The notes beneath the pieces were generated by a model, which saw nothing but the letters and a program-made list of their open reading frames with translations, was not told the origin of the DNA and did not search any database. The translations under genes were made by a program, and so were the position numbers. From assembly GCA_001724265.1 (NCBI GenBank), contig MEDY01000052.1, positions 62,001 to 126,000 of the forward strand: DNA of 64,000 bases. Reading direction: 5' to 3'. Numbering within the stretch: position 1 is the stretch's first letter; each line of letters begins with the position of its first letter. Below are positions 1-61,300 of the stretch, piece after piece. The DNA comes from Rhizaria sp. SCN 62-66 (Eukaryota).

Positions 1-3000
1 CGTCACGCTCAGCCAAAGCGTTGTCGCGCTCAGCAAAGGCAGCGTCACGCTGGGCACAGGCAGCAGCTTGCTCAGTCTCAGCGGTTTTGCGCGCCACAAA
101 AGCAGCATCGCGCTCCTCAACAAGGCGATCACGGACAGCATTAGTGGCCTTGTGCGCAGCCTCGCTCTGAACAAGCGCGGCGCGCGCCTCAGCCAAGTCA
201 GCCGTACTCTGCTTAAGAGCAGCGAGGCTCTGCTCAAGCGCGCTCTGGCTCTGCGCAAGATCGATCTTGCACTGACTCAGATCCTTCTCACACTGAGTGA
301 GCTCGGACTTGCACTCAGAAAGTGCGACCACAGCGGCGGCAAACTCAGCCTGCGCGCGCTCACACTCACTGCGGCTGGATGCAAGTGCAGCCTGAAGCTG
401 TGCAACTGCAGCCGCCTGGGCCGTAACCGCAGCCTCCGCCTCAACCACAAACGCACGCGCAGCGGCAACCTCAGTATCGGCCTTAGACAGCGCGGCACGT
501 GCGGCGATAGCGTCAGCCTCCGCAGCGGCAGCGCTCTCTTTAGCCTCTGCAGCCTCAGCGAGTGCAGCCTTGGCAGCGGCCCCAGCCTCAGCAGCAGCCT
601 CGAGGGCCGTCGAGGCCTCGGCCTTGGCAGCACTTGCCTCCGCATTAGCGCTCTCAGTCTTAGCGCGAGCGGCCGCAGCCTCGCTCACAGCATCAGCAGC
701 GGCCGCGAGTGCAGCGGACGTCGCTTCACCGGCAGCAGCAACGGCGCTCTTGGCGGCAGCGGCCTCAGCCTTAGCGGCCTCAGCCTCTGCGGCAGCTGCA
801 ATAACGGCAGCCTGGGCAGTCTGAGTCGCAGCCTTCGCGGTCGCTGTCTCGGCCATAGCAGCCTCCATATCCGACTTAGCGCTCTGAGCTTCGGCTTGAG
901 CAGCCTTAGCATCAGCCTGAGCGCTCTGCGTGGCAGCCTTGGCAGCCTCAGCTTCAGTCGTAGCAGCATCAGCCTTTGCATTGGCGGCAGCGCACTCGGT
1001 CTTCGCGGTCTCAGCTTCAGTCTTGGCTGCGTCAGCCTCAGCATTGGCTGCCTCAGCGGCACGCTTCGCAGCCTTAGCCTCAACCTTAGCAGCGGCCACA
1101 TCCGCAGCAGCAGCCTCAGCAGCAGCCTTCGCAACAACAGCCTCATCCTTAGCAGCCTGAGCATCAGCCTTGGCAGCGTCAGCAGTCGCGCTCATTTCAG
1201 CAGCCTTAGCCTCAGCAGCCTTAGCCTCAGTCCGAGCAGTCTCAGCCGCAGCAACTGCAGCAGCCGTGTCGTTCGCAGCGGTGGCAGCCTGCGCCTGAGC
1301 AGACTCCGCCTCAGCCTTGGCAGCGGCCGCAACAGCAAGCGCGGCTGAGGCTTCAGCAATAGCCTCAGCAGCTGCAGAGTGCGCAGCGGTGGTCTCTGCC
1401 TTTGCGGCCGCAACCTCTGCAGCGGCAGCAGACGCGGAGGCAGTCGCAGACGCAGCCTCCGCCTTTGCAGCAGCTGCCTCAGCCTTGGCTGCAGCAGCAG
1501 TAGCATCAGCAGCCGCAGCAGTAGCCTCTGCAGCCGCGCACTGCGCCTTAGCCTCAGTGGCCTCAGCGTTAGAGGCCGCAGCAGCAGCAACTGCAGCAGA
1601 AGCCTCTGCCTTAGCCGCGGCCTCAGAAGCCTCAGCAGCATTAGCGCGGGCAACTGCAGCAGAGGCCTCCGCAAGGGCCTCAGTTTTAACGGTCTAAGCC
1701 GCAGCAGCAGTCTCGCGTGCATTCTCAGCAGCAGCCTTGGCAGCCGCAGCGTCAGCGTTGGCGGCGTCAGCGTTAGCCGCCGCAGTCGCGGCCGCAGCCT
1801 GAGCCTGAGCCAACTTGGCAGCAGCGGTCTGCGCGGCCGCCTGGGCGCTTGCAGTCTCAGCTGCAGCAGCCTCAGCTTTCGCGGTTGCAGCAGCAGCGGT
1901 GGCATGGGCAGTAGCAGCCTCAGCGCTTGCCGCGGCCACAGCGCCTTCGGCAGCATCGCGTGCAGCAGCCACTTCGGCCGCCGCAGCAGCCTTGGCATCA
2001 GCAACGGACTTGGCCACGGCCGCCTCAGCTGCAGCCGCAGCAGCCTGCGCGGCTTCAGTCTCAGCGCGTGCGCTAGCGGCAGCCTTCTCAGCGGCCACAG
2101 CCTGCGCTTGCGCGCCAGCGGCCTGCGCATGTGCGCTCGCAGCCTGCTCCTCGGCGCGCGCGGCGCGCGCCGCAGCGGCCTCAGCGTCGGCCTTAGCGCA
2201 AGCGACGTCCGCAGCGGCGCCCGCTGCAGCGCTGGCGGCAGCGCCCGCCGCGGCGACTTCGGTGGCAACAGCACGGGCGATGGCGTCCTTGGCGGCCTTC
2301 TCGGCAGCGGCCAGCGCCGTCTGCGCGCGCGCTTCAGCCGCCTCACTCGCCGCCAGGGCACGACGACACGCGTCCAGCTCCGCGCCAGCGCGACTTGAGG
2401 CCGCGCGCTCGGCGGTCAGAGCGGCGTTCAGACGCGCGGAGTCCTCCTTGGCGCCCGCAGTGATGGCGGCCAGCTCCGCGCCCAGTGTGCCCACGCGCGT
2501 CTTGGCGGCGGCAGCGTCGGCCACGGCGGCAGTCAACGCGGTGCCCGCGGCGGCGAGCTCAGTAGTGATGGTCGTGATGGCAGCGCTGGTCGCCATCGAG
2601 CCGGCAGCGGCGGCAGATTCCGCGCGCGCTAGAGCCGCAGCGGACGTCGCAGCAGCAGCACGTGCGGCGGCAGCGTCCTGACGCGCAGCCTGGGCAGCAG
2701 CGGTCGCAGCTGCAGCTTCAGCCTTGGAAGATGCAGCTTCAGCCAATGCAGATGCAGCGTGGGCCGCGGCAGCATCGACCTCAACAGCCGCGGCTGCGGT
2801 AGCTTGTTGGGCGGCACTGGTATCTGCGGCAGCCTTGGCAGTTGCGGCAGCGGCGTCGGCCTCAGCTGATGCAGCATTAGCCTCCGCCTCGGCAGCAGCA
2901 TTTGCGGCGGCAGCAGCCTTTGCCTCAGCCTCAGCTGCCGCAGTGACAGCAGCCTCAGCAGTCTTGTTAGCCTCAGCAATAGCGGTCGCGCTTGCAGCAG

Positions 3001-5597
3001 AGGCAGCGTCAGCCTTCGCAGCCGCAGCGGCGACCGCGCGCTCAGCGTTAGCCTTGGCGTTATCAGCCGCAGCCTTCGAATTAGCAGCCTCAGCAACGGC
3101 AGAGGCCAGCGCGCGTGCGGCGCCACGTGCCGCAGCAGCGAACTCGGCAGCAGAAGCACGCGCTTGCTGCGCCTGGCGCTCAGCCAAGCGCGCATCAGTG
3201 TTCGCAGCAGCCAGTGCAACAGCAGCGTTCGCATGCACACCTGCGATGGCCACCGCAGCCTCACACTGTACGGCAGCAGCCTAGCTCTGGGCGGTAGCAG
3301 CAGCAGCCTCAGCAGCGCTCGCAGCGGCGCGCGCAGACACGCACTCGCGCTCTGCATCAACACGGGCGGCGGACGCAGCGTCACGCTCTGCGTTGGCGGC
3401 GTCGCGCTCAGCGAGTGCAGCATCAAGGGCGACGTTTGCAGCATCGCGCTCAGCGTTGGCCACATCGCGCTGGGCGACAGCGGCGTCGCGCTCCGCGGCA
3501 GCGCCGTCACGCTGAGCCTGTGCAGCATCACGCGCAGCCTCAGCCTCAGCGATCTTAGTGTGCGCAGCCGCTGTGCCGGCTTCAGCGGCTTCAGCAGCCT
3601 TTACGGCAGAGCTTACAGCCTCAGAGCGAGCAGCATCAGCAGCCAACTGAGCATCAGCCGTAGCGGCGCGAGCCTGCTTGAGCATAATTTCACACTCACA
3701 CAATACAGCCTCTGTAGCAGCAAGCGCAGCACTCTTCTCAGCAGCTTCCGCGTTGCTCTCTCGCAACGTAACCTCACGCTGCTGCAGAGTGGCCTCGGCA
3801 TACTGCAGACTCGCATTGCTTTGTTGCAGCACAGACTCACGCTGCGCAAGCGCGGTCTCCAGCTCCGTGACACGTTGCCCCAGCTCATCTTGCGTCGCTG
3901 CAAGAGCGCCCTGTGTACTGGCAAGCGCAGTCTGCGCCGCAGCAAGAGCGTTCTCCGTCATCGTCACTTCAGCGCGCGCGGCGGCGAGCGCGGCTTCCTT
4001 TTCCGCAAGCGCGGCGCGGGTTTCATCCAGGGCGGCGCCACTACGGGCCAGCGCTGCAGTACCATCCGCGGCCGCAGTCTCGCTCGCGCGCAGCACGGCG
4101 GCCTGTCGCTCTGCAGCCGCAGCAGCTGCATCCGCAGCAGTCTCAAGAGTAGACACACGGGCCTGCAGCGCGGCAGCCGCGGTCTCAGCGGCTTCAGCGC
4201 GCGCGGTGGCAACATCAGCGTCGGCGCGCGCGCTTAGCAACGCGGCCTGCGCGGTCACAGCGGCAGCCTCCGCGGCCGCGGCGCCGGAGGCGTGTTCGGC
4301 GGCGCTCGCGCTGAGACGTGCAGCCACGGTGGCAACGTCGGCACGAAGGGATGAAACGGCAGCGGGCAATACGGTACGCAACGTCGAGGCAAGCGCCGCC
4401 GCAACGGTAGCTGAGCGCGCAGGCGCATCATCGTTGTTGGTGTTTTCCTTGCTGATATCAGCCTCAGCAGAGACGGTCAAGCCTTCGAGAGAGGGAAGGT
4501 TGGACGACAGGAACGCAATACATTCCTAAATTAAAACGTACACAGGCATACAATATACGCGTGAGTGACATAAACAAAATCAAACTTTACAAAATCCTAT
4601 TGCCGTTCCTTTGTGTGGCAAAATTCATCGCGAAAACAAGCAACTAGCACCGTACCTTAAGGATGGTGACACTGTCTGCCAGATGACTGTGGAAACGCGC
4701 GCGCTCCTGCGCGGCAGCTAAATGCGCGCGCGCCTGCACCAGCCGCAGCCGCGCCCAAGCGGCCGCGCCTTGAAGCCTCTGCGGTGCAGCGTTTGCTGAC
4801 TGTGTAGCCGCAGCGGCGGTGTTCTGTTTGTTCTTCTTCTTGTTCTTGCTCTTCGCATCCTTCTTGTCGCTGACGCTATCAATCACATAGGTGTTAGTCG
4901 CATCGTCTGCGTTGCTTTTGCTCTCGCTGTCTGCGGTTAATGATGCGAAATCGTCGTCGCAGCGCCAGTCGCACACGGCGCGCATCAGCAACCGCCGGCG
5001 CAGTGCCATCGCGCTCACCGCGGCGTCCGCAGCGGCCGCGCGCTCGCGGGCGCGCGTCTCGCCTGCTGCGGCCACGGCTTCAATCTCAGCGCAGTGTGCG
5101 GCAAGCTGGTCTGCGCGCGTGTTGGCCTCGTTGAGGCGCGCAGTGGTGCTATCAAGCGTCACTTGCAGGGCGTCGCGCTCCTGCGCCAGGGCAGCGATGC
5201 GGGTCTGTGCCACGGCCAGCTCCGCACGCAGCTGAGCGGCGAGCGCAGAGGCCTCATCCAGCGCCGCGGTGGCGGCTGCGAGCTGCGCCTCTAAGTCTGC
5301 GACGCGCGTCTGCAGCGCGGCAAGCGTGGCGTCCTTGGTGGCGGCCTCGGTGCGAGCGGCACTTTGCTCAGCACGCAGAGTTGTAACCGTCGCTGTCAAC
5401 GCGCGCACAGAGGCCAGTGCCGAGTCGCGCTCCGTCTGCACTGTATTAGTAAAGCGGAAGCGCTCGAGGTGCAGCTGGCGCATAAGTTCGCGTAGCTTTA
5501 GCTCCGCCTGACGTGCCTTTAGGGCTTCCGCCGAGGCCTGGAGAGTCTCCAGAGGAGCGGCGGGGGGCGCGGGAGCGCGCCGGACCACCACACGCAT
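1..5597 (-). CDS. Very large Ala/Glu-rich coiled-coil protein (>1800 aa, 3' end beyond the window); exons 5597-4656 and 4525-<1; two in-frame TAG codons
   Basis: ORFs 4644-5597, 3281-4480 and 1694-3253 join up. A phase-0 intron 4655-4526 (AAG|GTACGG...TTTAATTTAG|GAA) links the first two, and the rest is one frame broken only by TAG at 3283-3281 and 1696-1694. Heptad-like A(E/Q)RDAA repeats occur near 3370-3540 and 1-130. The ATG at 5597 follows a TACATAG acceptor-like site, so the true start may be upstream. Confidence 0.8.
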
Positions 5598-8632: not shown

Positions 8633-11600
8633 TTAGTAGCGGCGCGGTGGCATGGGCGGCGGCACGGGCGCGGAGGGTGGCCCCTGACCGTACGGCGTAG
8701 GCGGCTGCGGCGGCGCCTGCGCGTACGGCATCGGCGGCGCCTGCGCGTACGGCATCGGCGGCTGCGGGGGCTGCGGCGGGCGCGGCGGCATGGGCGCGGC
8801 CGAGTACGCGGGCGGATGCGCCGGCGGAGCACCGCCGCCGTACTGCCCGTACGCCGGCGGCTTTGGCGGCGGCGGCGCCATCGGGGCCTGTTGGCCGTAG
8901 CCCGAGCCAGAATGCTGCATGGGGTTGTCCGAAGACACGGCATAGTACGTTTGCTGCTGCGGCGAGCGCGGCGGCTGCGGCGCCATGGGGGCCGCGGGCG
9001 CGTAGCCGTACTGCGGCGGGGTGGCAGGTGGGTAGCCAGCCGGCTGGCCGTAGCCGGACTGAGGCTGGCCAAAACCGGGCTGAGGCTGACCATAGCCGGG
9101 CTGAGGCTGGCCGTAGCCGGACTGCTGCTGACCGTAGAACTGAGGCGGCTGCTGCGGCGGCACGGGGGCGACGGGAGGCGCCGCCGTGGAAGCAGGAGCA
9201 ACAGGCACCATGACCACAGCCGCAGGAGCCTCAACGGGGGCGCCCGACGAACCGGAGCTGGAGCGCATGCAGGCGCGGCACCAGTATCGGCGAGTGCCCT
9301 GGAACTGCTGGCAGCAGCAGCACGACAACAGGCACGCGATTAGAAGCACACCGAGGATGACGCAGATGACGACGACAGCGATGACCCATCCGGGGGTGCC
9401 ACTGCCGCCGCTGCCTCCGGTGTCGGTGTTGTAGTCGCTGGGTACACCAGTGCTCGTGCTCGCGGGGCACGTGATCGAAGACGTCGACGTGCACGTCGAG
9501 TCGCTCACGCCCAGACCAAGCGAAACCTCACTCAGCGATAGCACCGACGACGTGGCGGCGACCAAGGTCGAGTACTTCGCAGCCAGCGCAGTGACCGCGG
9601 TGTAGGCCGACACCATGCTCTGATCAGCCCCTTCAGGGTCGTTGGTCGCGGCGATGACGAAGCGGCCCGTCGCGGCGTCCGGCGTCGCGCAGTAACCGTT
9701 GAGGTGGAAGCGCGCGATCACATAGTCGATCTTGCTGCTGCTCGTGTAAAGCTCAGCAGAGCGGAACGTGACCTTGCCTGCGGACGCAGGCACTCCAGTC
9801 GCAGAGCCACCGCCGGGCAGCAGCCCGCGCGCGGCGCGGGTGAGCTCCAGCGCAGCGCGCGCGAAGAAGGCCTTGGTCGCGTCGCTGTCGAGGATGGTGA
9901 CGCGCAGGGGCAGGTTGTTAGCGGCGAATGTCAGCACCAGCGCGACACCGCGGCACTCGCATTGGTCGCCGACGAACTCGCGCGAGCACTCGCACGCGCT
10001 GCAGTCGCTCGAAGGCCTGCCCGACGTGCCAGAGGAGCCCGAGGTGGAGCACCGGCGGTCGCACGTCTGGCAGCTCGAGCCCGTCCAGTCGCCCGTGCAC
10101 ACGCACGTGCCGCAGCCAAAGAGGCCGCCGGTCTTGGCGAGGGCGAAGCCGTTGTTGAGACACACGCCGACGGACGAGGACGCGGTTGACTTGGCGGCCG
10201 CGGTGGCAGCGGCGTCCAGATCGCATGTGGTGGGCGTGCCGCACGTCGTACCGTGGTAACCCGCCTTGCACACGCAGCCCGTGGTGGCGCTGTCAACGCC
10301 GGGGAAGGTGCGGGGCGCGCACGACGACGTGTCAAGCGTGTTGCAGCCGTACGTGACGCACGGGCCGTTCTCGCAGCGCGCGCCGGAGTAGCCCTCTTTG
10401 CAGGTGCACGCGTCGCTGGGCGCGCTGGTGCGCGAGCAGACGCCGTTGAGACCGCAGTAGCTGCCACCCTCAGAGTCGCAGATAGAGCCCAGCGAGAACG
10501 TGGACGCGGAGTCCGCGTACAGCGACGCCGAGACGGACACGCGCACAGTAAAGGAGAACGCGGCCCACGAAGTCGGCACTTCAAACACGGCGGATGTCGC
10601 AGTCACTGGCACGGTCATCATGGGACGAACATCATCGCCAGAGCCACGGGCCTCGATCAAGAAGTGCGTGTTCAGCGATGACGCCCAGCTCGAGCCGGAG
10701 TAAGAGAAGTTGACCGTGAGCTTGCTGCCGCGCGTGGCCGTGGTGCCCACGCTGCTGGCGCCGGATACAGTCACCGAAGTCACATTTAGCGTCGCGACCT
10801 CAGCGCACTGGTCACCACGCGTACCCGGGTAGCAGGTACACGTGCCCCAGAGACGCGAGGGCGTGCCGGTGAAGCCGACGGAGCAGGTGCCGCTGTTCTG
10901 GCACGACACGGAGCCAAGCAGACACGACGTCTCGGTGCTCGGGCGAGTGGTCGCAGGGCAGAAGCCATCAGAGACGGCAGTGCACGTGGGCGTGTCAGTG
11001 GTGTAGCGGCAGCACGTGACGGTGGACGTCAGCACGCCCCATGAGCACGCGCCGGTGCAGGCCGAGATCGCGGAGCGCTCCCACCCGTAGGTCGGCTCCG
11101 CTGCGGTGGGGTCGGTAGGACACTGCGGCGTGTCAGTGCACGCGGCCGACGTGGCGGGCTTGGTGCCAGCGACGGTGCCCGAGGCCTCGCAGTCGGAGAG
11201 AAGTGCAGAGTTGATCAGAGAGGCCGAGCTGTCAACGCAGCTCACAACGCGCGTCATGGTGCCCGGAGACGTGGTGGGATTGACCGAACACGCGGGGCAG
11301 CCGGACCACGACTGCTTCACGACCCACGCACACGCGCTGCGGTCAGTGCACGACGACGACGCCGCGGGCTGCGTGCCAGCGCCCGCGGACGCGCAGACCG
11401 AGTTGTTGACGGCGATGGGCGCGGCGTTGCCGCCGGGCAGCACAAAGCACCCGACGTTGCGGCCGCGACGGCCCGTGGAGGAGCACTTGGACGAGCAGGC
11501 AGTCCATTCCGAGCCCGTATCGGAGCACGTGACCAGCGCGGGCGCGGTGGGAGACCAGCAGCGCCAGTCGGCCGTGCAGCCGGTTGAGGTCGGGGAAGCG

Positions 11601-22184: not shown

Positions 22185-22369
22185 ACCCTCGCAAAAGTAA
22201 CCAACTGGTCCCTATGGATTCCCATGAGGAGACTCACATAGAGATCGGTGGAAGACAAAAGCTTGTCAAGGCGTAAAAGATAGAGAGTGGACGTACCAGG
22301 TTGCCCGATAATGTAGATGGGCGCAACATAAGAAGAGGGAGGAGGGCAGACGAGAGATCGGCAACCAAC

Positions 22370-42699: not shown

Positions 42700-42733
<34 letters not shown>

Positions 42734-43690: not shown

Positions 43691-45976
43691 ATGGACCGCC
43701 GCGCTGCCACCCTGGTTGAGCTCACCAACCTTTCCGCGGCCCCCGCGCACGGCGACTCGGTGCTGCGCGACGCGTGCCGCCGCGGCGACGTTACTTCAGC
43801 CACGAAAGCCCTGACTCGTGGTGCCAACGCGTCCTCGCGCGACTCAGACGGTGAAACGCCGCTCCACGCGGCCGCACTCGGAGGTCACTCGCGTCTGGTT
43901 GAGCTTTTGCTTTAGGCGGGCGCTGATCCGTCTGCAGCGGCTTTCGCGACTCTGGAGACGCCGCTGCACTACGCAGTGTTGGCAAACCACCTCGCCGCCG
44001 CCGCCGCGCTCCTGCTCTCCCCCGCCTCCTCCACCGCGGCCCCCGCGTCAGCCTCGGCGCTTCGCGGCTCCGCGCGGGGTGCTCTGTGCGCGCGCGACGC
44101 TGTGGGCCGGTCAGCGCTGTACTGCGCGGTTATGATGGGCCGGCCTGCGTTGGTGCGGCTGCTGCTGGGTTGCGGCGCCGACCCTAACGAGGCCGGCGGG
44201 GCTTACGGGCACTCGCTCATCTGGACCGCGGCGTACTACGCGCAGCCAGAGTGTCTGCAGCTGCTGCTTGCGGCGGGAGCCTCGCTGACACCAAAGCAAT
44301 CCTCGCACTCTCCTGAGCACACATCGGCTGAGGGCAAGACTGCAACGGCCGCTGCGGCGCCTCACAGGAGTCCGATCGACGGCGCGAGCGCTGCGGCCGC
44401 GTCAGGCGCGCTGCCTGACGCTGCCTCTGCGGCCGCTGTTAGTCTCGCTGATGCCCTAGGCAAGCTCACAATCACCGAGGCCAACGCCGACAAATCCGAT
44501 GCTGCGGCGGCGACTGGTGGCTTTGTGTCATCATCGAGTCCTGTGTCGACGGGGCCTCGCTCGCCTGCGCCGCTGCTGGGCGCCGCGATCGCGATGCGCT
44601 CGTCCAACAGCGACCTCCGCGTTCCCGTGACCAGCAGTGGCAGCGGCGATGCGCGTGGCTCCAGCCTCGGTCACGGTCGCGGTCACGCGAATGTAAATAG
44701 CCTGTCAAGTGCAGGGTCGCTCGAGTTTGAGCACGTTGCGCTACCGGGCGACTACAGCGCGGGCTCAGAGGGCGACGACAGCAAGGACCACAGCGGCGGA
44801 CCCGCGTTTATAACCGCGACTACCGTGGCTGTCGCAGTACCAGGGAATGGCAGTGCACTTGCGCCGCCCCAGCAGTCTGCGACGACGGCGACGATGACCG
44901 TGGCGAATCACGTCCAGTTCGTGCCGCCGTCTGAGGACAGCTATTTCCCGCTTGAAGCCGCCGCGCGCTCTGGTGACGCGCCCACGGTTGCGCTTGTGCT
45001 GCTCGCCGCCGCGCGCACAGAGGCCGAGGCGAACGCCGCCGCGTCACCACAAGCAACGTCATCATCTTTGTCAAGTCCTTCTTTTGCTGCCACGGTTGCT
45101 GGCTGGTTCTCGGCCGCCACTGCAGCCGTTACAGGCTTTAGCGCCGCCGACAACACCGCTGCGGACACTGCTACAGACGCTGACGGCGCCGAGCTGCGCG
45201 CCGACGCCGCCGCCGTGGTCGCCGCCGCATGCTCCAGCCTGCCGCGTGCGCCTGCGGTCGACGAGCCCACGCGCGCGCGCGCCGCGGCCGCGCTGGCCCG
45301 CCTGCGCGCGAGCGCCGCCGTGCGCGCCGCGCTGTCGGCATCGAACCCTGCCGCGGGGGGCTCGTTCCCGCTGTGGACGGCCGCAGCAGGCGGCCACGTG
45401 CCCGTCGCGGCGGTGCTGCTGGCGGCCGGCGCCGCTGCGGGGCAGCGCCACGTCGTTTCGGGAGGCACGCCGCTGCATTGCGCGGCCGGCGACGTCGCTG
45501 GCGCGCTGGGCGGGGGACCGGGCGCCTCGGGCGCGGGGGCCCCCGGCGGCGGGCGCGCCGCGGCCGAACTCGTGGCACTATTGACTCGCTGCGGCGGCTC
45601 TGGCTCGGGGTCTGGGCTAGAGGCGCGCGACCGGCGCGGACGCACTGCGCTCCACACTGCGGCGGCGCGCGTGGAGCCTTCGGTGGTCTCTGCACTCCTG
45701 CGCGCGGGCGCAGACCCATTGGCGGAGGATACCATCGGGCTGACGCCGCTTGGAGTAGCGCGCGACGCGGGCGCGGAGGGACTCACCAAGGCCATGCTGC
45801 TGCGCGCGACCAGGGCTGCGCTGGACGCACGCAGGGCTGGAAAGCATTCGCAACAACAGCAGCATTCGCAGCAACAGCAACAGCAGCAGCTGCAGCAGCA
45901 GCTGCAGCAGAAGCAGAGAGGACCTACAAAGAAGCGCGCTGGCTACGAGGAAGAGGAAGAAGAAGAGGAGCAGTGA
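43691..45976 (+). CDS. Ankyrin-repeat protein with one in-frame TAG (43913-43915) and a poly-Q/poly-E C-terminus
   Basis: GETPLHAAALGGHSRLVELLL[TAG]AGADP, then ETPLHYAV, GRSALYCA...LLLGCGADPN, GGTPLHCAA, GRTALHTAA, GLTPL. ORFs 43595-43915 and 43976-45976 share a frame with no other stop between them. Stop TGA. Confidence 0.87.
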
Positions 45977-49640: not shown

Positions 49641-49723
<83 letters not shown>

Positions 49724-51993
49724 TCAACGATGACGACGGAGATGGCGTGAGCAGCGGCCGCGACGCGGACGAGGGTGATGCTGGTGACGGTGACGGCGAC
49801 GGCGGAAATAGGTCGCGTCACGGTGGGTTTTTGCTGACTCAATACTTCCCCGCCCATCGCGACAACCAGAACAGTAACAATGGCAGCGGCAATGGTGGCA
49901 ATGGTATTGAAGAGTACGGTGGTGAGTACGATGGCGACTTCTATCAGTACTACGCTCCACCCACGGACGGTGACGCTGACCTTAATGCTAATGGCGCCTA
50001 CGGTGACGGTCACCTGGCCGCTGCGATGGTGTCTGCGACTGCAGCAGCGGAAGAACATAAAAGCAGCAGCACTAACAACAACAACTTCGACTATGACGAC
50101 GACGACAACGACGACAGTGAAATGGGCCGGTGGCTGCGCGAGCTCACTCAGCCGCCCGCAGCGCCTTCGTCACCGCTATACACGCCCACACCAACCCTTC
50201 TGCAGTCATCATCCGCCGTCGACTTTGCGCAATCCTCGTCCGCTGCCAACGCCTCCGCCGCCCTGCAGTCCTCTGCTACAGCGCCGTTGCAGCAGCCTAC
50301 GCCGCGTAATGCGTTCTCGCTTTCACAGTCACATGTGCAGCTGCCTGCCCCAGTGAGGCGCGCGCCCTTTGCCCGCCCCGCGTCCGCCGCTTCTGGCACT
50401 GCTACGACAGCTACGATTGTGACTAGTTCTCACTCTGGTGCCGATGTCAGTGGCACGCTGTCGCGCACGTCGTCGCTCTCGCTCGCGCGCGCCCCGTTAT
50501 CCCGTGCATCGTCGGCGTCACTATTCTCCGATCCAGCGTTTTCTTCCTCATCCTCTGCAGCAGCAGCAGCATTGCCAACCCTCGGCGCTGGTGGCGTGTC
50601 CGATGGTGTGGCGTTGCCGGCGACCGTGCGCGCCGCCGCCGCCACAGTCCTGCGCATGCTCGCCGGCAGCGCCACGGGCGCCGACGCCGCCGCGCTCGCC
50701 GCCACGGGCGTCGCACCGTCCTCCGCGGCCTCCGCCGCGGCGGCCGCCGCTGAGGCCGCGCTCCCGCGCTGCGCTGTGTGCCGCGACCCCGCGCCGCTAC
50801 CGCGACCGCCGCTGCCCGCGCCGCTGCCCGGCGCCGGTGGGGACGCCGCCGTGGCGCGCCTGCTCGCCTCCGTCGCCGCCGCGCCGCAGTGGCTCGAACC
50901 CCCCGTGTCTGCCGCGTTGTCTGGCGTCGCTGCTGGCGGTGGCGGGAGTGGCCCGCCGCGCGCGCCCGTGGCAGTGCAGTTCTGCACCGCTGCCGCGCTC
51001 GTGCCCGTCGCCGCCGCCGCCGCCACAGGGATGGCCGCAGTGCGCGGCTGTGGGGCGTGGGCGCACCGTGTGTGCCTTATCCGGGCCTTTGCACAGCAGG
51101 CGGAGGCCTCGCTCGCGCCCTTTGACGCAAACGCACCGCAAAACAACACGGCATTGGAGGCAGAAAACGACAAGCCTAAGGGTAAGGGCAAAGGCAGCAA
51201 GAGTAAAGGCAAAGGCAAAGACCTATCTGTATTCAACACTCCTGTAGCAACCACGCGCGCGCCCCCGAATGCCGGCGGCATCGATGACGGCGATGACGGT
51301 GCTGCTGCGGGGAGCGCTGCTGCAACTCTGGCGCCGTTGCTGCCGTTCTCGTCGCCGCACCTGCGTCGCCGGTGCGCGGGTGCGTGCCGCGCGCCGCTGC
51401 TGCCCGCCGCGGGGCTGTGCCCGTGCTGCCGTGCACCACTGATGTGGGCGCGCGTTGTTGCCGCTGCCACGGCCGCGCAGGAGCGCCGCGCCGCCGCGTA
51501 CGCGCTCGCCATGAAGACGCTCCGCAAACACCTCAGCACAACCGCTGCTAGCGGTGCGGCGGGCGAGTCCGGCGCTGATGCCGGGGGCGGGCGGCGGAGC
51601 AAGCAGGGCGGGATTAAGCGCAAGGGCTCGGGCACGGGCTCCGCTTGCGGCACGACTGCGAGCACGTTATCTGCCGTGTCCGCTGGCCCGCCGGGAGCGA
51701 TTTACGCTAAGGCACGCGCGCTGTCGCGGGCGTCGTCGCTCTCGCAGCAGCAGGCGCTCTCGCAGCAGCAGGCGCCGGCGCAGGAGCGACAGGCACAGCC
51801 GTTGTCGCAGACCGCTCATGTTGCGGCGGCGTCGGGGGCTCCGTCACTGTCGCTGTCGCAGCCTGGAGCGAATCGCGGACACGAAGCAGACGCGATAAAC
51901 GCTGGAGGAGCGCTGTCGCACGCGCGCGCGCTGGGCGCCATTGAGGAGGAAGGCGACATTGCGGGCGTCGATGACGATTGGGGCTGGGAGTGA
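49055..51993 (+). CDS. SLX1: Structure-specific endonuclease SLX1 (GIY-YIG plus split C-terminal RING-like domain) with an apparent frameshift near 49724
   Basis: CYALRS...[18 protein letters not shown]...GA..T...RPWEM...[18 protein letters not shown] in ORF 49055-49750; CAVC...AH..CL...PLLP..GLCPCC...LMW in ORF 49597-51993; the frame changes right after (GAC)27. Stop TGA. Confidence 0.85.
49643..49723 (+). repeat. (GAC)27 perfect trinucleotide microsatellite encoding poly-Asp
   Basis: 81 nt of uninterrupted GAC within SLX1. Confidence 0.95.
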
Positions 51994-52559
51994 GCGCAGG
52001 CTGGGTAGACGTGCGTTTCCGCGCGGGAGTGACTCTTTCGAGCCGTTAGTATTCTCAAATCGTTTGAGGTGGTGATGCATTTCAAAGGAAAACCCAATCA
52101 AAATAGCCTCTGAAAGATATTATAATACTTTATTTAGATATTTTGAAATACATAGATTTTAAAATCAGCAATATCATTCTGTTTAGCTATTATCCATATT
52201 GTATTTTCGCCGATGAAAATCGAGGTTTTTTTGGACGTAAAGCTTACAGTTCAACGGATCGCACAGGTTACACTGCGCATGGCCGATCCATCATATGACT
52301 GAGATCATGCATCCTTTCATTATCGGCTTTCAATGCAGTTCCTAGTTAACATAATTACATCAACAAGTTTAAACAACACATTTTAAATATTTACCTAAAA
52401 ACATTTAGATTGAAACGCACGTATATCCTTATATCCACGCATTGTTCAATTCCTGAGAGCGAGTTGAATACTGTGGACACGCAACTCACGCTAAGCAGGG
52501 TTTTGTCTTGTTTTGTGTTCTCGTACTCAGAACTAACTGCCTACAAGCATTGCCGCAAA

Positions 52560-55211
52560 ATGGACCCTAACCAGGCCGCCGCGCGCGCGCTAGTCGAGCT
52601 GTTTTTGAGTGACGCGAGCATCCGCACGTCGACACGTCTGAACCGCATCTACTCTCGCGCCACCGGTCCTGATGTATGGATCCCACTCACTTACTTCACC
52701 GCCTTTAAGTGTATTCGCGCGCTTTTGCCGCCTGCGCTAGGCCCGACCACCCCGCTGCTTGACGTCGTGTCATTAGGAGTCCCACCACTCGCAGACGGCA
52801 CTGTGTCCACTGACAACGGTCAAACACAGGAAATGACAAGCGACGACAGTGTCAGCAGCGCCAAAACCATTCAAGACCCCGCCTCTATAGCTGCGACTTT
52901 CTCCTTTATGATCAACGCATTGGAGAGCTCAAAGCTGCTTTGTGTGGACGCGGATTCACAGAGTATTTCGCGCCGGGCGCCCTACAACGGTGCAAACGTC
53001 GATGTGGATGCACACTCGGTGCGCGCTCGTGGATTACCAAGCAGTTGGCGTTTTGAGCATGCACGTGCGTTTTTTGCGGCTAAAGGACTTCCACTTGTTA
53101 ACCTTCTTAAAGATCCAGTTCGTAAGTGCAGCAACAATAACTCAAACGGCGAGCGTCATAACGGTGATGGTGCGTGGCTCATCTTCGCAACTCCAGAGCA
53201 CGCCATCGCTGCGGTTGAGGGCCAATTCGAAGCTTCTCATAAGGATCACATTAGTAGCAGCACTGATAATAGTAACAACACGAGCAGCTACAACGAGGGC
53301 CCCATTGATGATAAGAACAAAGCCGCGATGCGCCAACTGCACCTGATTTCCAAGAAACAGTTTGTCGCGCAGACCCAGGATAAGCGGTCGTCAGCGGCCC
53401 GCATCCTTGGGGCTCCAAAGAAAGCCACTGCCTTTGCTGGACCGCCTTGCACTCGGAGCGCAAAGCGTGCTACGCACGCTGCCAGCTCAGCTGCTGCTGC
53501 TCCTAGTTGCGGCGGCTCAGGACAGAGCAGCTCTGCGACGCTGACGGCCAGCGTTCGTGTGTCACGTCAACAGGCCGATCACAATGAGGACTTGCTTGGA
53601 CACCGTAGTAACAACAGTACTTGCACCGGCTCGGCGTTGCAGCCCGTTGTGGCCCGGGCCAGCGATAGTGCGAGCAGCACTGACTCCCATTCCAGTGGTT
53701 GTGACAGTGCGGGCGATAGCACCGACAGTAACAAGCGTGATAGCTCGAGTGACAAGCAGCCCGTGTTCACGAAAGGCTACCTGCTCAAAGTGCATGGCGT
53801 GAGCGGTAGTCGTCGTGTGGTCCGCAACAACATTGCACGCTGGCTGGATGATATCCCTGGCTGTTGCGGCACGACTGTCATTAGCTACAGCACTGGTAAC
53901 ATCTTTGCCAACGTTGCGCTTACTCCTGATTCCAACGCACCTACTGCTGCGGCTGTTGCGCGCGTGTTTAACGCGCGGCCTGCAAGTGAACGCTGCATGC
54001 GCGAACAATCCGGAGAAGTTGCCACTGCTGCAGGGACGCACACCCGCGCGCGATCAGACGGGGTGAAGTTCATGCCCGTGACCCCCGAAGCTGAGACTGA
54101 GCTTTGGGCGACGTTGATGCGCCGTCGGGCCCGCGCCAATAATCGTCGCTCTGCTATTGCCGCACGGGCCGCACACACCCGCAACAGCACGAGTGACTGT
54201 GATGCGAGCGTTATGCAGAACGGTACTCGAGGACGGGGTGATGCAGCGACTTCGCAACAGTGGCGGAACGAAGGAACATCCGGCCCTTCAATTGTTACTG
54301 AGCAAAACGTGCAGCTCATGCATCTGGAAAACGGCAACAACTTTGCGTTTGACGCCAACTATAACACAACTCACCCCAGCAGCAGCTTCCTTAGGGCACC
54401 TGAATATCCCGCTCATCAACAACATTACACAGAGCCCACTGCGCACCACGGGCATTACTTGCAACATGGCCACGCTGCGACATATGCCAACGGCTTGCCG
54501 CATGCGTTTTCTGTGCAATACGCGCAGTACGGGCCGTACTCGCAGCAATCTGTGTTTATTCCGCATCGCGGTCACAGCGATCATCGCTTCACTGTGCAGC
54601 AAAACCAACAGCCACATGTGCATTACAACCAGCACGCGCAGTTGCAAGTGCACTGGGGCGTGCCTAATTACTATCCCGCGTATGCACATACGCATGAGCA
54701 GGCACACGTTCAGGCGCAAACACAGGCACAGACACCGGCGCAGACGCAGGCGCAGGCGCAGGCACAGGCACATGTGCAGACGCACACGTCTACCAACTAG
54801 CAGTCGCATTATCTTGAGGTGTCATCGCATCACAGCCACCGCCAGCCAACCGGGGCAGCGCCGCAGTACCTGCAGTGGCATTATCCGTCGCACGGACATC
54901 AGCTTGTGCACTACCACGGCCATTATGAGGTTCAGCGCACACACCAACCGCCGCTCCAGCACTCTCACCGCACAGACTATTAGCAGCAGCGGCAGTTCAG
55001 TGCGCAGACGCGGCACCACCAGCAAGAGCGCGGGAACCGCAGTGCTCGCCACACGCAGCGGCACAGTAACTTGCAGCAACAGCAGGCGCAGCAACTACAC
55101 CCTCATCGGCAACCCCAAGAGAATCCTCACTGCCAGAGTCAGCAAGATTCCCAGCAAAATCAAAGAGCGCAGCACGGACAACAAGGCGGTTTTGGCAAAA
55201 GGAGACACTAA
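52560..55211 (+). CDS. Divergent La/LARP7-like RNA-binding protein, paralogue 1 (La motif, RRM, xRRM-like, His/Gln-rich tail); two in-frame TAG codons
   Basis: LVELFLSD...WIPL...FKCIRAL...ALESSKLLCV...ISRRAPY (La motif); DVDAHSVRARGLP...FF...WLIFATPE.A (RRM); FTKGYLLKV...ISY..GN.FANV...E.ELW (xRRM-like). The Gln/His-rich frame continues through TAG 54798-54800 and 54981-54983 to TAA 55209-55211. Confidence 0.75.
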
Positions 55212-56261
55212 GATAAGCAAATGTCGCATGGACAAGCGAGTTTTTGCTTCCGTTATATACCCACATTCTGATCTTGACGCATTTCTAGCGTCATGGCTCA
55301 GAGCATGAAAGCTTCGATACGACTTCTTTTTAGTTCAAGATCGTATGTAACTTCATGATTGTTATTTCAAGAAGTCAACTATTATTTTCACCATTCTTCA
55401 AACTATATTTTAGAAATAAGTTATATTTTTTCGTTTGGGTTCAACCGTGGTCCGGCGTGTTTTGTTATTATCAATTCATACGAGGTGCCAGTATGAAACC
55501 CAATATCAAGCAGTGGATCTGCTTACTTCTGATGCACATATGGTTTATCACTTAAATAAACGATATAATAATGCCTTTTATAAAAGGGAGTGGCGCCTTA
55601 CAAAGATGATTTGAGATTTCCTTCTGATTTTCTCTTAAAACTGGCGTTCCTCTCTGTTGCTGCGCACAGTTATGAGCGCGACACAGATCCGCACAAGCAA
55701 TTATATACCAATATGCGACTGGTTCGAGATTAATCAAACTTAAAATACAATGTATTATAACGTCTAATTTACGTCCTATACAATCTTGTTGTATGAACGC
55801 CAAATCTTGCAAAGGTATCACTTGACTTCATCAATCTATCCGTTGCACCACTGAGCTAAAGTGTATTCAGTCCATCCACCAAAATCACAGGCAGAACGAA
55901 TGGTTTGGTCGCAATTTCAGCGCTATCAAAACGAACACACTTGTTGAACAGTTCAAACTAATTACTATATGAAGATAATTACTGTCAGCATCATGCTCTG
56001 TCGATTTGCGAGTTTGTGCCGAACAAATTTTGACCTTAAGTTTTCTCTTCGCTCCTCCGTGCTTGGCGTCATGTTCCACATTCCATCATAACACTGCTGT
56101 AAACAGCTGCGGCAAATAGAGACGGACATTTTGACAGTCACATAGCAGCCGATGTATCTTATTACGCCGTTCCGTAGAGTAGCTCCCGCTACGCGCTCTT
56201 TCGACCTCCTTTTGTGTGACCCGGGAACCTGAACCTAGTCCTGTGGCACGCGCTCTTGCGC

Positions 56262-57299
56262 ATGTCTCTTCCGACGCGCAATGCGGAAGCGCTATGCACC
56301 TTGGTAGACACACTGCTATGCGACGCAAGTGTAGCAACCTCGGACCGCCTCCGTGATCTTTGTCCGCCAGGGTCCAGCGGCTGTGTGCCACTATCTTTCC
56401 TCCTTGGCTTCCGATGTGTGCAGGCCTTGACCACAAGTCCGAGTGCGCTTGCAGCTGCATTGCGAGCGTCAACGCAGCTCTGCGTGGCAGATGATAGCCT
56501 CTCAGTGTCCCGCAGGACTCTCTTCATCCCTGAACAGCTCGATTTGACTGCACACACTGTCCGTGCTTGTGGAATGCCTGCGGCATGGCGCTATGAGCAT
56601 GCACGTGTGTTCTTTTCCACGCGCGGACTTTCGCTCGTCAACAAGCTAACCGTGCGCACAAAGCACCCGCGCCGTCGCGCAGCAGTGGCAAAGTGCGGCC
56701 AGCTCTCAGTTGACGCCGCCGCAGGTGGTGTTGTTGTCCCACGTGAGCCCTCTGGCGAGGATAAAAACAGTGACGGTGACGATGGCACCCTCCCCACTCC
56801 ACCACAGCCAGCCTGGCTTGTTTTTGCGACTGCGGACGACGCTAACGCCGCCGCTGCGGCCTTCCCAGGCCCTGTGGACGGGACCGCTGCGGTGGCCCGC
56901 GTCGCGACCACGGACGGCGACAAAGAACCGCTCGACGCTCCACTGCTGGTGCTCACTCTCAAGCGTGACTATCTGGCTGCTGCGCTGGCCGCACGTGCCC
57001 CGCGCAACGCCGCCGCCCCGCGCGCGCCCGTGTCGCCCGCGTCCGCGCTCGCCGCCGTCGCAGCGGCGCCAGCAGTCACGCAGAAGGCAGACTCGCCCAA
57101 GCGCGCCACAACGGGGATTATCACGAGTACTGCTCCTGGTGACGCTGAGACTTGTACTGCGGCAAACAGTGGCGGTAGCGCTACTGTGAGCCATGCTGTT
57201 GCATCCGTTCCCGGCGATCAGTCTCCCGCCAGTGACGGCGCTGCGCTACGGCCTTCACAGGCGCCTGCGGAGTCGCTGCCACAGGCAGTTGCCGAGTGA
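56262..57299 (+). CDS. Divergent La-like protein, paralogue 2 (La motif and RRM only)
   Basis: LVDTLLCD...CVPL...FRCVQALT...ALRASTQLCVADD...VSRR; DLTAHTVRACGMP..WRYEHARVFF; WLVFAT. Clearly similar to both neighbours. A possible intron 57296-57367 would extend the CDS to TAA at 57470. Confidence 0.7.
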   Translation: MSLPTRNAEALCTLVDTLLCDASVATSDRLRDLCPPGSSGCVPLSFLLGFRCVQALTTSPSALAAALRASTQLCVADDSLSVSRRTLFIPEQLDLTAHTVRACGMPAAWRYEHARVFFSTRGLSLVNKLTVRTKHPRRRAAVAKCGQLSVDAAAGGVVVPREPSGEDKNSDGDDGTLPTPPQPAWLVFATADDANAAAAAFPGPVDGTAAVARVATTDGDKEPLDAPLLVLTLKRDYLAAALAARAPRNAAAPRAPVSPASALAAVAAAPAVTQKADSPKRATTGIITSTAPGDAETCTAANSGGSATVSHAVASVPGDQSPASDGAALRPSQAPAESLPQAVAE

Positions 57300-57610
57300 A
57301 TGTCCAAGCCCCATCCACTGAGCAACGTTGTTGAACTTACGCAGCCGCCGCATTTGTGCCCTTACAGACCCGCTGAGGTTGCAGTAGCTAGCTGTGGTCT
57401 ATGTCCACAACAACAGCGGACTGAAGCCAGAGTCAGCGAGAAGGAGATGACCGCTGAATATTCGACGTAACGCATTGTATCGATATTGAAGTCGACTCTA
57501 ATACTTAAACCCATTAGTGCGCTTGATGCAACGAGTTCAATGATGTGACGCACGACATTTTACATTAAAAAAAGCATGTGAGACGGTGACTAAGACGGTC
57601 GCGGTGTATT

Positions 57611-57632
57611 CCCCCCCCCCCCCCCCCCCCCC
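57611..57632. repeat. Poly-C/poly-G homopolymer (22 nt)
   Basis: Run of 22 C in the spacer between La paralogues 2 and 3. Confidence 0.9.
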
Positions 57633-58115
57633 TTCTTGTGTAATTATGTAACATTTTGCGCGTAACAAATGACTTTCAACGACGTGCTGTGCGCGTTATA
57701 TGACTCAAGGGCAAACTACCCGACTGGAGGCGCTCGAGGTAACGCGAGACTAAACAGCGCACCAAGCAGTCAGCATGAACAAGTTCGCCGTTATTTATGC
57801 TTGGTTGTTTTGTGCAATATGCGTTCGACAATATCTATCGAGTAGTATGTATCTTATGTAGAACTCACTTGGGTCATACGTCCGAATGCATGAGAAGTTC
57901 ACTGCCTTTGTGGCCGACGTGATAAATCTATTGCATTTTGCGGACTATCTCGTTGAAAACCTGTACAAAACCCTTGCGCGAAGTTAAATGTATGTACACA
58001 TAAAATACTTATTGCGCGTGCGATTTACTTAAAAGAATAAAGTTTCATCCCGATGCACCTTCATAGGTCATAAAGGCAAAAGCTTTCTCGCCAGGAACTG
58101 GGCTGCAGAGCCCCA

Positions 58116-58161
58116 CCAGTCCATTCCAGCCCGTGGGCCCAGTCCAGTCCAGCCCGTGGGC
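58116..58161 (+). repeat. 23-bp tandem duplication (2 copies, 1 mismatch) upstream of La paralogue 3
   Basis: CCAGTCCATTCCAGCCCGTGGGC followed directly by CCAGTCCAGTCCAGCCCGTGGGC. Confidence 0.85.
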
Positions 58162-58372
58162 TATCTTATACGAAATGCGTCAGCCGTTGAATTTATTGCA
58201 AGCGGCTGTACGAGATATTCGACGGTGAAAATGTTCTGTTCATAACGATTCCAGTCGTGTAGCTCACTTTAATATCTATTTAACTTGTTGGATTTCCTTT
58301 GCTCTTTATTTTTGTGTCTGTGTGGAGCAGGAAAGTTGCTCAAGCTGTTAGTCGCTCTCGGCAGCAGGCTCC

Positions 58373-61300
58373 ATGCAACTTTCACCCTCCACGGCCCTGG
58401 AGATATGCAGGTTGATAGATTTATTTCTGTCAAACGTTAGCATTAAAAGCTCGCGCCACCTTCGCACCCTTCACAGTCAAGACCCCGTTGCTGCTGTACC
58501 TTTGCATGTCTTCGCACGTCTTCGATGCATCTCGAAACTTGCGCCGTCCATGGAGATATTGACTGAAGCGCTACGCTCGTCTCCGGACTTTCGAGTGAGC
58601 GCGGACGGGCTGCACGTATCTCGCATCACGCCCTACTCTGGCGACGATGTTGATTTGACTGCGCACTCGGTTTGGGCGTCCGGCTTCCCCTCTTGGTGGA
58701 CTTTCGAAGATGCGCGTCTCTTCTTCTCTGCGCACTCGCTCACGCTTGTCGGCAGCACGGCGGCAGGGAAGCTGTCTTCCGCACCCCGCGTTGCGACTGC
58801 ACTTGCGACGCCCTGCACTACACCTTCTAGCAGCGACACTGACGCCATCAAACGGACTCGTCCACCCCGTATGCTTGTCGAGAGCCTTGACAGCGGGGAC
58901 TTGAGTGACGACAACTCGTTGGATGACACTTGGACTGACGAGAACCCGCGTGACGCCGATACCGAGTTCCCTATCCCCACGGCTGCTGTTGTAGTGTCCC
59001 GCCCGCGCTGGCTTATCTTCGCAACACCAGAGGATGCTGCGCGCGCTGTCGCCAGCCACTTCCTCGTCAGTGCCACCCGAGAGCACGCGCCCGACGGGCC
59101 AGACGCCGCGATGATGCTGCCCGTGACACTTGTGTCCAAGACTGAGCGCCGCGCCGCCTCTACCGCCGCTGTTTCTGCCCCCAGCCGCCGCAAGACGGGT
59201 CTCGGGCCCGAGCCGGAGAGCAGCGAAGACAGCGACGAAGCTCCAGTGACCGAGAGCACTGTGCGGGCCGCAGCTGCGTGTCCCGCTGCCGAGGGCCTTC
59301 TCGCCGACGGGCTCAACGACGCAGTCTCCACGATCAGCACGCTGCCCCCACAGCAACAGCCCCCGTCGCAGTCGCTGTCGTAGTCTCAAGCGCAGCAGTC
59401 CCAGTCCCTCTCCCTGTCACAGTCCAACTCTGGCTCCCTAAGCGCTTCTGCCACGACGCCGCCCGGCCCCAACACGTCCGTGTCTGTCTCCTCTGGTCTG
59501 CATAGCAGCGACACGCGCTGCGAGTCGACAGCCACAATGGCGGCCGCGGGACTACAGGCGACGATGCCCTTTGTGCCAGGATATCTGCTCAAAGTCGATC
59601 ACGTCTACAGCAGCGACGCGCGTGCCATGCGTCTCCTCATCAACAACTGGGTTGCTCTGGCCACTTCCGCACCCGCACCCGCACCTGCGGCTGCGCCCGG
59701 CTCCGCCTCTGTCTCGGACGCTGACGCGAGCGCGAACGCCAGCGCGAGCGCGGGCGACGGCGCCGCGGCTCTGTCCCCCGTGTCATCTGCGCTGCCCAGT
59801 GCGCCGGCACTGCCCACGTCCCCCTCGCTGCACCTGGTGCTGCCGCCGCATACGATGCAGGCGATGCGGCGCGCGGCCGCGCTTGTGGTGCGTCTCATCA
59901 GCTACAAGCCAGGAAACACTTTCGCCAACATCATCCTCGACTCCAGCGGGCCCGCGCCCGTGACTGCGGCTGACCTCGCTGCGCGACTCAACGCGCTGCC
60001 CGCGCGCATGCGCACGACATACGGCCCGCCGCGCGCCGCCGCCCAGGCCGCGCAAGCGCAGGCGCAGGCGCAGGTGCGGCCGCATTCGCAGGCGCAGTCG
60101 CGGTCGCGGTCGCAGGCCTAGGGTGCGACGCGCCGTGGTTCTGCTGCCTCAAGCAGGAGTTCGAGCACTGGCTCGAACGGCGGCTCGCGCTCTCGTTTGG
60201 GCGACACAGCAACGGGCGCGAGCGCTGGCGACGTTGTCACAGAGTCGGACATTACCTGTTTGACGGGCGCCGCTGCTTCGGCCGCGTCGGAGGCTGCAGA
60301 CCCCGCGGCGCTGCCGCCAGTGAGCGCCGCCGTTGCAACAACAGTCGAACCATCGACTTCCGCGCTCGCCCCAGCCTCGGCTCTGCCGTCGTCATCAGCC
60401 CCGGCAGCGATGTCCACGGCAGCGGCGCCCGCGACTACCGCCTCCGCGGGTGTGTCCGTGCTCCCTGCGACCGCTGCGACGGGAAGCGCCAGCACCGGCG
60501 CGGTGCAGCGCGTCGCACTCGAGGCCACGTTCGCGCCCGTTGCGGCCGAGATGGAGGAACGTGTCTGGGCGTATCTGCTGCGCTGCAAGGTCCGGACCGA
60601 GACGCGCCGCACAGACCCGCAACGGTCCGGCATGCGTGGCTCGGGATCGCACCCGCAACCGCATCAGCAGCCGCATCAGCACCAGCACAGGCACCAGCGG
60701 CAGCAGCCGCAGCATCAGCAGCAACAGCAGCAGCAGTGGGGCTACATCGGGAGCAACGCGCCGTCCGCGGCGAGCTCGTACGCATCACACTGGTCGCCGC
60801 TCGGTCAGCACGGCAACCACGGCAACCACGGCGGCCATGGCGCCGGCGCGGCCGAAGGCTACTACATGCCGGGCATGACTGGTGTGCCCGCGGCCACCGG
60901 CGGTGTGGCTACGGCGGCCTCACCGATGATGTACCTGCCTCAGGGGGTCGCGGCGACCGCGGCGGGCGTGTACGGCGCCCGCTACGGCCACACCGCGGCG
61001 CTGTCGGCGCAGTCGCCGATGCAGATGCAGATGCCGGCACAGACGCCGATGCAGATGCAGATGGCCGCGGAGGCGTCGGCCGGCATGAGCGGCGCGTCGG
61101 TGCCTGTAGCGGTGCCGGGCCAAGGCTATGTCGTGTGGGTGCCGTGTGCGCCGCATCACGTGGAGTCCGGTGCTGCGGCACTCCAGGGTCAAGAGCAGCA
61201 GTACTATCTTGCCCAGCAACAGCAGCAACAGCAAAAGCAACCACAGCCGCAGTCGTCTCAGCAGCAACAACAACAGTCGCAGCTTCATATTGCTCACACG

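Follow-up and report, generated by a model that had tools for sequence, protein, structure and literature searches.

In-frame TAG codons in a 64-kb eukaryotic contig from wastewater communities suggest that UAG is probably a sense codon

Genes and in-frame TAG codons

The stretch of DNA analysed here, referred to as the window, comprises 64 kb of contig MEDY01000052.1 (positions 62,001 to 126,000) from the assembly deposited as Rhizaria sp. SCN 62-66 (GCA_001724265.1). Metagenomes that contain it come from bioreactors, wastewater and activated sludge and were generated in several studies. Searches with Pfam and NCBIfam profiles identified an ordinary set of eukaryotic genes on both strands. 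The genes are rich in guanine plus cytosine (GC, ~0.6–0.7) and the spacers between them are AT-richer. Four genes in the window contain TAG triplets in frame, seven altogether, and we place the probability that UAG specifies an amino acid here, with UAA and UGA as terminators, at about 0.65.

All seven triplets were confirmed at the coordinates and strands given in an earlier annotation of the same DNA (the original prediction), as were the peptide contexts quoted there. They are listed below with their genes, an asterisk marking the TAG codon.

2..5597, minus strand: gene A, an Ala-rich coiled-coil gene (exon 1, 4656–5597; intron, 4526–4655; exon 2 from 4525, running past the window start)
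3281..3283, minus strand: TAG of gene A (TAQS*AAAV)
1694..1696, minus strand: TAG 2 of gene A (TAAAA*TVKTE)
43691..45976, plus strand: ankyrin-repeat gene, 761 codons, ends TGA
43913..43915, plus strand: TAG of the ankyrin gene, position 23 of the canonical 33-residue repeat (GETPLHAAALGGHSRLVELLL*AGADP)
52560..55211, plus strand: gene P, La motif plus RRM-like (La-module), ends TAA
54798..54800, plus strand: TAG 1 of gene P, in the His/Gln-rich tail (TN*QSH)
54981..54983, plus strand: TAG 2 of gene P (DY*QQRQ), 76 codons ahead of the TAA
58373..62620, plus strand: gene R, a paralogue of P and Q with the La module, ends TGA
59381..59383, plus strand: TAG 1 of gene R, in a Ser/Gln/Leu linker (SQSLS*SQ)
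60119..60121, plus strand: TAG 2 of gene R (SRSRSQA*GAT), which falls at the Q/R/H slot within an X-Q dipeptide repeat

The seven codons were found among approximately 13,500 examined and would represent about 1.3% of glutamine codons if UAG encodes glutamine. An eighth TAG (4526–4528), within a long minus-strand frame, was rejected as a codon and instead forms the acceptor of the 130-nt, phase-0 intron of gene A. Further TAGs, a short way upstream of the open reading frames for Ras (6152), WD (24354) and myotubularin (36468), were also set aside, being located in 5' leaders.

Genes P and R belong to a group of three tandem paralogues on the plus strand (52560–55211, 56262–57299 and 58373–62620) that have an amino-terminal module composed of a La motif and an RRM-like domain, with 32–35% identity to R. 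The low-complexity tails of P, Q and R are very different, and TAGs occur in two of the three genes; Q, the shortest, has none. Atlas matches to gene R were La/LARP clusters at 0.89, which serves as a lead and not as confirmation.

Continuity of coding sequence

At all seven sites, in four genes, the UAG lies inside bona fide coding sequence and is not removed by splicing. In the ankyrin gene, a Pfam Ank match (residues 90–119 of a 798-aa open reading frame) runs through the TAG codon, which fills its place in the repeat with no gap; the whole protein matches Ank_2 with an E-value of 4e-32. Four blocks of gene R are colinear with its paralogue P, and blocks common to the two are found downstream of both TAGs of gene R, the block at R 508–547 after TAG 1 (E 6e-5) and the block at R 720–747 after TAG 2 (E 4e-4). 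Gene A presents convincing coiled-coil sequence in the same frame on either side of both of its TAGs, the flanks of which are coding according to a codon-usage score (0.19/0.17 at 3281 and 0.25/0.24 at 1694). The same score separates the frames of gene P poorly and is negative in the flanks of the P TAGs. As a result, GC content, composition and a metatranscriptome contig described below were relied on for this gene. The 300 nt downstream of the seven TAGs have a GC content of 0.54–0.74, compared to 0.37–0.51 past 17 true stops. An AlphaFold model of the ankyrin amino terminus, calculated without an alignment, was too poor for use (mean predicted local distance difference test score, pLDDT, of 54.5).

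Two introns were verified, both of the form GTACG...YAG, with lengths of 130 and 160 nt and GC contents of ~0.38–0.42 (the figure for gene A being based on 128 nt out of 130). In gene A, exon 1 ends in AAG and is followed by GTACGG...TTTAG, with the join in frame. The intron of the proteasome gene (30963–31122, plus strand, 160 nt) reads AAG|GTACGA...CATAG, and the true end of this gene is a TAA at 31288. In contrast, GC is at least 0.54 in every 80-nt window over a TAG. A GTAYG donor is absent within 400 nt upstream at five of the seven TAGs; for the sites in gene P, GTAYG motifs are located 118, 271 and 301 nt upstream, within exon-like sequence. The earlier claim that no intron covers any of the TAGs is thus upheld by exon-like GC, by the absence of a donor at five sites, and by metatranscriptome contigs that are unspliced at two. 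In general, introns of the window are few, short (130–160 nt) and AT-rich, with an AAG|GTACG donor and a YAG acceptor. Introns also occur in the EF-P (17.0–18.6 kb) and tetraspanin (15.6–16.9 kb) genes, and they cluster in genes of lower GC content.

Gene ends and other stop triplets

Seventeen gene ends could be placed, in addition to one probable TAA end at 22370. The 17 consist of eight TAA and nine TGA codons; TAG accounts for 0/17, or 0/18 if 22370 is included. That no gene ends in TAG had been noted in the original prediction and was reproduced, but its count of 19 ends (10 TAA, 9 TGA) was not. Within the 300-nt 3' flanks, TAG makes up 60 of 275 stop triplets (0.218), a frequency at which the lack of TAG ends has a probability of P = 0.012–0.015 (0.012 for 0/18). 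Among the first in-frame stops downstream, 4/17 are TAG, and a Fisher test against the gene ends gives P = 0.045. UAG is therefore absent from bona fide termination sites in what is a small sample (P = 0.012–0.045).

A six-frame codon-usage screen was performed in which every stop triplet was tested for coding-like flanks. Five of the seven TAGs were recovered, together with three antisense-frame TAGs in known genes, three TAAs and no TGA. The two gene P sites fail the screen because the codon usage of P differs. The three TAAs are in sequence that does not look coding, and the one at 22370 is possibly a true gene end. Following inspection of these candidates, no TAA or TGA was found to interrupt a sense-strand coding frame of the window, which agrees with the initial description. 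Given that all seven interruptions are TAG (P ~0.05) and none of 18 ends is (P ~0.012), the pattern is more than chance.

A purine is present at the +4 position in 15/17 true stops versus 4/7 TAGs (P = 0.13), and the base after TAG is C at 2/7. With a purine following four of the seven and C only two, leaky contexts are not a systematic feature of the TAG sites. Additional stop triplets directly follow several of the true stops, as in COQ3 (TGAgtgaatgactga), the WD gene (TGAgtgagtgaa) and eRF3 (TAAgtgag).

Comparison with other samples

Assembled contigs of four runs (X3, X4, X5 and X8) were compared to the window over 43500–62700, a region that spans five TAGs. X3, which originates from another study and year, covers all five and has no other letters over 43829–46756, 54785–55432 and 59163–60729. 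X4 represents a slightly different strain, with nine differences in the 2,051 nt of its record 14, none of which are at TAG codons; it keeps both gene P TAGs (54798 and 54981), the two within its demonstrated coverage. The X5 library is a polyA metatranscriptome. One X5 contig (~54828–55034) has X4-type single-nucleotide polymorphisms (SNPs), no change listed at 54981, and is unspliced, and a second (record 22, 59852–60142) crosses 60119 without a joint or a listed change at the codon. The X8 contigs held nothing relevant at any TAG. CAG in place of TAG, or removal by splicing, had been named beforehand as outcomes that would count against a sense codon; at the contig level, five of the seven codons are intact in X3 and two are unspliced in X5.

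Downstream of the TAGs, 6/11 SNPs of the X4 strain are synonymous in the read-through frame as compared to an expectation of 0.20–0.28 (P = 0.034; an expectation of 0.30 would give 0.078). Since 5/11 are synonymous elsewhere in the genes, constraint is not relaxed past the TAGs. The mixture of nonsense codons, frameshifts and relaxed constraint that marks a pseudogene is also not observed; the numbers are small, and the interruptions are exclusively TAG with no frameshift.

Two positions stood out by depth. All four runs have a 2-nt length polymorphism at 57566 with very high summed depth, and the CAG-repeat part of gene R (60166–60806) is also very deep. In both cases, the depth probably arises from low-complexity sequence shared with other organisms.

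Candidate amino acids for UAG

The ankyrin TAG occupies a repeat position that can be compared across 468 repeats from 120 ankyrin matches. The residues found at this position are Glu (0.28), Ala (0.25), Asp (0.17), Lys (0.085), Arg (0.066), Ser (0.049), Gln (0.028), Leu (0.002) and Trp (0.002), and Tyr is never present. Thus, Leu, Trp and Tyr are disfavoured. The local composition around all seven sites is led by Ala, then Ser, then Gln, and among the one-step neighbours of TAG the order is Ser, Gln, Glu; this statistic is indirect and disagrees with the ankyrin position. An internal repeat at 59381 is ambiguous, since the slot partner of the TAG is CTG (Leu) or CAG (Gln).

Orthologues of the ankyrin gene were sought for an aligned column. 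A full-length search returned 154 matches, all of them generic ankyrins with at most 52% identity over short parts; a search of the amino-terminal 260 aa against shorter proteins gave 127 matches, none orthologous; and an exhaustive search of representatives found no orthologue among the 150 matches listed, mostly giant ankyrin proteins. UAG as a sense codon alongside UAA and UGA stops is still the best-supported reading, in keeping with the original prediction. Its assignment of UAG as most likely Gln was not sustained, given the disagreement in composition and the lack of an aligned column. If UAG is sense, Gln may be retained as an economical guess with roughly half of the probability, because it is one transition from TAG, has the commonest precedent, and fits the CAG-rich slots. 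Glu and Ser are also candidates.

Interpretation and alternative explanations

The support for UAG as a sense codon consists of TAGs that lie inside continuing frames, are stable across samples, and are absent from the gene ends seen. The host would be a GC-rich, intron-poor and aerobic eukaryote of wastewater and bioreactor communities that terminates at UAA and UGA. Decoding of UAG would be performed by a tRNA with a CUA anticodon or by a near-cognate tRNA-Gln, and the eRF1 of the host would have lost recognition of UAG. The rarity of UAG, and its confinement to weakly codon-biased genes with fast-evolving low-complexity parts, would be expected of a codon that was recently captured or is poorly decoded. 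Coming from one 64-kb window with seven sites and 17–18 gene ends, this evidence makes UAG probably a sense codon and does not amount to proof.

A number of observations weigh against it. All seven TAGs fall within 4,532 codons of four low-complexity genes, whereas eight better-conserved genes (8,951 codons) are free of them (P = 5e-4), and such clustering in fast-evolving, low-complexity genes also fits genes that are decaying or leaky, the sample being small. Random nonsense mutation in the four genes would yield TAG with a share of 0.64, so that 7/7 has P = 0.048, which is weak alone; if only C-to-T changes at Gln codons are considered, the share is 0.72 and P = 0.10. The P values at the gene ends are modest, at 0.01–0.05. 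Four of the seven sites have a Gln-rich context of the type associated with readthrough. The contig comparison takes in five of the seven TAGs, with the gene A sites (1694 and 3281) outside of it. The X5 data are assembled contigs, from an RNA library that may contain DNA, and record 22 has three differences, of which 59884 is listed and two are without a location. A tRNA scan of the 64-kb window found no tRNA gene, eRF1 is outside of the window with eRF3 as the only termination factor there, and no alignment column from the ankyrin searches backs any amino acid.

Several of these points are anticipated by the standard genetic code, in which the TAGs would be tolerated nonsense alleles of dispensable, fast-evolving genes, either decaying or leaky by means of a near-cognate tRNA-Gln. 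The restriction to four genes and the majority share of TAG among random nonsense codons (0.64–0.72) are as expected, the SLX1 gene provides at least one other broken frame in the window, and two of the four Gln-rich sites have CAG as the next codon. In yeast, which uses the standard code, a Gln-rich context promotes readthrough of premature stops by tRNA-Gln, with QXQ motifs and Gln content as the drivers and Gln inserted (Leslie et al. 2026, preprint, PMC13192750). This Gln-rich setting is shared with the four sites; however, the yeast readthrough described there is partial and predicts ordinary TAG terminators, which are not seen among the 17–18 ends and are left unexplained by a standard code. 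Four of approximately 20 genes would have to be broken, with one or two nonsense codons each, yet no frameshift, TAA or TGA accompanies them. Furthermore, no Gln-rich context surrounds the ankyrin or coiled-coil sites, four of the seven TAGs have a +4 purine, constraint is unrelaxed past the TAGs, and the codons are fixed across studies and in a diverged strain. A standard code is therefore regarded as unlikely, while deserving serious consideration.

The remaining alternatives are less probable. UAG could be either sense or stop depending on position or context, as with some ciliates and, for other stops, Blastocrithidia. Context-dependent codes have been described (PMC11687900) and nothing in the window contradicts one, given that the rarity of TAG could cause TAG terminators to be missed among 18 ends; however, no such terminator was found, and the +4 purine at 15/17 TAA and TGA ends resembles ordinary termination signalling, making an ambiguous code improbable. 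Removal of the UAGs before translation, by unrecognised introns or by RNA editing, can appeal to the existence of introns, to the GTAYG motifs ahead of two gene P sites, and to the acceptor-like sequence at 43913 (CTTTTGCTTTAG|G). It is very unlikely when set against the GC of the TAG flanks relative to the two known introns, the five sites with no donor, and the X5 contigs that cross two sites unspliced and unchanged; excision of the ankyrin codon would also break the register of the repeat. Finally, the contig is a metagenome assembly, and contigs break at microsatellites, one of which holds the SLX1 frame change, so errors of assembly or sequencing, or chimerism of the contig, may be considered. 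Since a different study and year is letter-identical at all five TAGs compared and two of them persist in a second strain, artefact is largely refuted for those five and, for the set as a whole, is the least credible of the alternatives.

Comparison with known reassignments of UAG

When UAG alone is reassigned, it is separated from UAA, with which it is ordinarily coupled, and the sources consulted describe a handful of nuclear lineages in which this has occurred (PMC5304391, PMC11687900). In the fornicate Iotanema spirale, UAG encodes Gln and the stops are UAA and UGA (Panek et al. 2017, PMC5304391). From the account given there, 204 UAGs were found in 126 genes, amounting to ~8% of Gln codons, with 104 UAA and 15 UGA ends; Gln was the residue at 22/28 hyperconserved UAG positions, and eRF1 is altered (PMC5304391). 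The window resembles Iotanema, to the extent described, in that the reassignment, which is proposed for the window, affects UAG alone, the codon is a minor one, and no UAG terminator is present among the scored ends. Iotanema differs as an anaerobic metamonad, whereas the host in question has GC-rich genes and is presumably aerobic, since it has UbiG/COQ3. The window contributes seven UAGs, with neither an aligned column nor an eRF1, and TGA is about as common as TAA at its gene ends (9 versus 8).

The sainouroid rhizarian exLh reads UAG as Leu, with 384 UAGs in 71 genes and ends of 56 UAA and 15 UGA (PMC5304391). While it too has UAG alone as sense and only UAA and UGA as terminators, its UAG is reported to be heavily used and to coincide with conserved leucines; in the window, UAG is an infrequent codon, and 0.2% of the 468 repeats have Leu at the ankyrin position. 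Among phyllopharyngean ciliates, UAG is Gln in Hartmannula sinica as well as Trochilia petrani, or Leu in a TARA lineage (McGowan et al. 2024, PMC11687900). The uncoupling of UAG from UAA is common to these ciliates and the window, and a tRNA(CUA) is the route proposed for them; they are described as using UAG widely with UAA as the preferred stop, and the window is without a suppressor tRNA by tRNA scan. Long, GC-rich genes with spliceosomal GTACG introns would be unexpected for a ciliate.

Code 15 is the NCBI nuclear table for Blepharisma. It would formally be the same table if UAG is Gln here, which is a guess, and the setting is a eukaryotic nucleus; code 15 (TAG = Gln) has been named for phages (PMC9523058).

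If correct, the window would hold the same kind of reassignment as the known UAG-only cases, in another organism and with much rarer use of UAG. It is tentatively suggested, at somewhat less than even odds, that the host is a deep-branching, aerobic, GC-rich eukaryote, frequent in wastewater reactors, in which UAG alone is at an early stage of capture, independently of ciliates, Iotanema and the sainouroid rhizarian. As part of the same suggestion, UAG may amount to ~1% of its presumed synonymous family and may still be kept out of conserved, strongly biased genes. Early codon capture would then be visible in a GC-rich non-ciliate as a natural snapshot of stop reassignment, and the eRF1 and tRNA of this host could be set beside those of previously described lineages. 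As a practical matter, gene callers will fragment or shorten the genes of this host in wastewater metagenomes when they apply the standard or bacterial code. A literature search of incomplete coverage found no description of such a UAG-reassigned organism, and a prior report is possible.

Termination factor eRF3

A gene for the termination GTPase eRF3 was identified in the window, along with a relative on a metagenome contig.

28066–29496, minus strand: eRF3, by profile match; short amino-terminal region, no in-frame TAG, ends TAA
630–2015 of a 2,097-bp metagenome contig: eRF3 relative (L001), 80% identical, also ends TAA

While eRF3 belongs to the termination machinery, it does not set codon specificity. 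The original prediction makes no mention of this gene; its statement that tRNA(CUA) and eRF1 lie outside of the window was borne out. The best match to the eRF3 is the metagenome relative at 80% identity and all others are at or below 61%, and thus, judged by sequence, it is of a lineage without named close relatives. Queries with the eRF3 and the myotubularin-like protein against contigs of prokaryotic genomes returned nothing. An alignment scan of metagenome contigs with P, Q and R gave 205 pattern matches, none confirmed, and an Rfam scan of the window produced no match.

Other genes and features of the window

The gene content identified with Pfam and NCBIfam is as follows.

Ras-family GTPase
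Tetraspanin
UbiG/COQ3 (19078–20103, minus strand)
Bacterial-type EF-P, split by introns (17064–18591, plus strand)
WD/Aladin-like protein
eRF3, proteasome beta subunit and EMC1
Reprolysin/TSP1 protein, 2,229 aa (8633–15322, minus strand)
Myotubularin-like protein, 2,330 aa
Ankyrin-repeat protein and EF-hand protein
SLX1 (49055–51993, plus strand)
Three tandem La-module paralogues, P, Q and R

The COQ3 and EF-P assignments made originally are correct, with a UbiG/COQ3 profile score of 238 bits against a cut-off of 103. The EF-P has an amino-terminal extension with introns inside the gene, and adjoins UbiG/COQ3. Both proteins are presumably organellar, pointing to an aerobic mitochondrion.

The SLX1 frame change that had been reported earlier is real and is located at a (GAC)n microsatellite. 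The frame shifts within or just after approximately 30 GAC codons (repeat 49640–49730), giving poly-Asp in one frame followed by acidic sequence in another. The contigs of other runs break at 49630–49733, and one X5 contig is a base short at 49522. Since the change coincides with a microsatellite where contigs break, it is probably a problem of assembly or repeat length and not a sign of a pseudogene.

A repeat search for a dispersed element in the window returned only coding low-complexity repeats. At 22130–22900 (minus strand), there are short open frames with moderate coding scores and TAA ends at 22543 and 22370; they may belong, as exons, to a gene with introns that has gone unannotated. 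The 2,229-aa protein combines a reprolysin-type metalloprotease domain with five thrombospondin type 1 repeats in an ADAMTS-like architecture. Such a combination is uncommon among protists and may be of use in placing the host.

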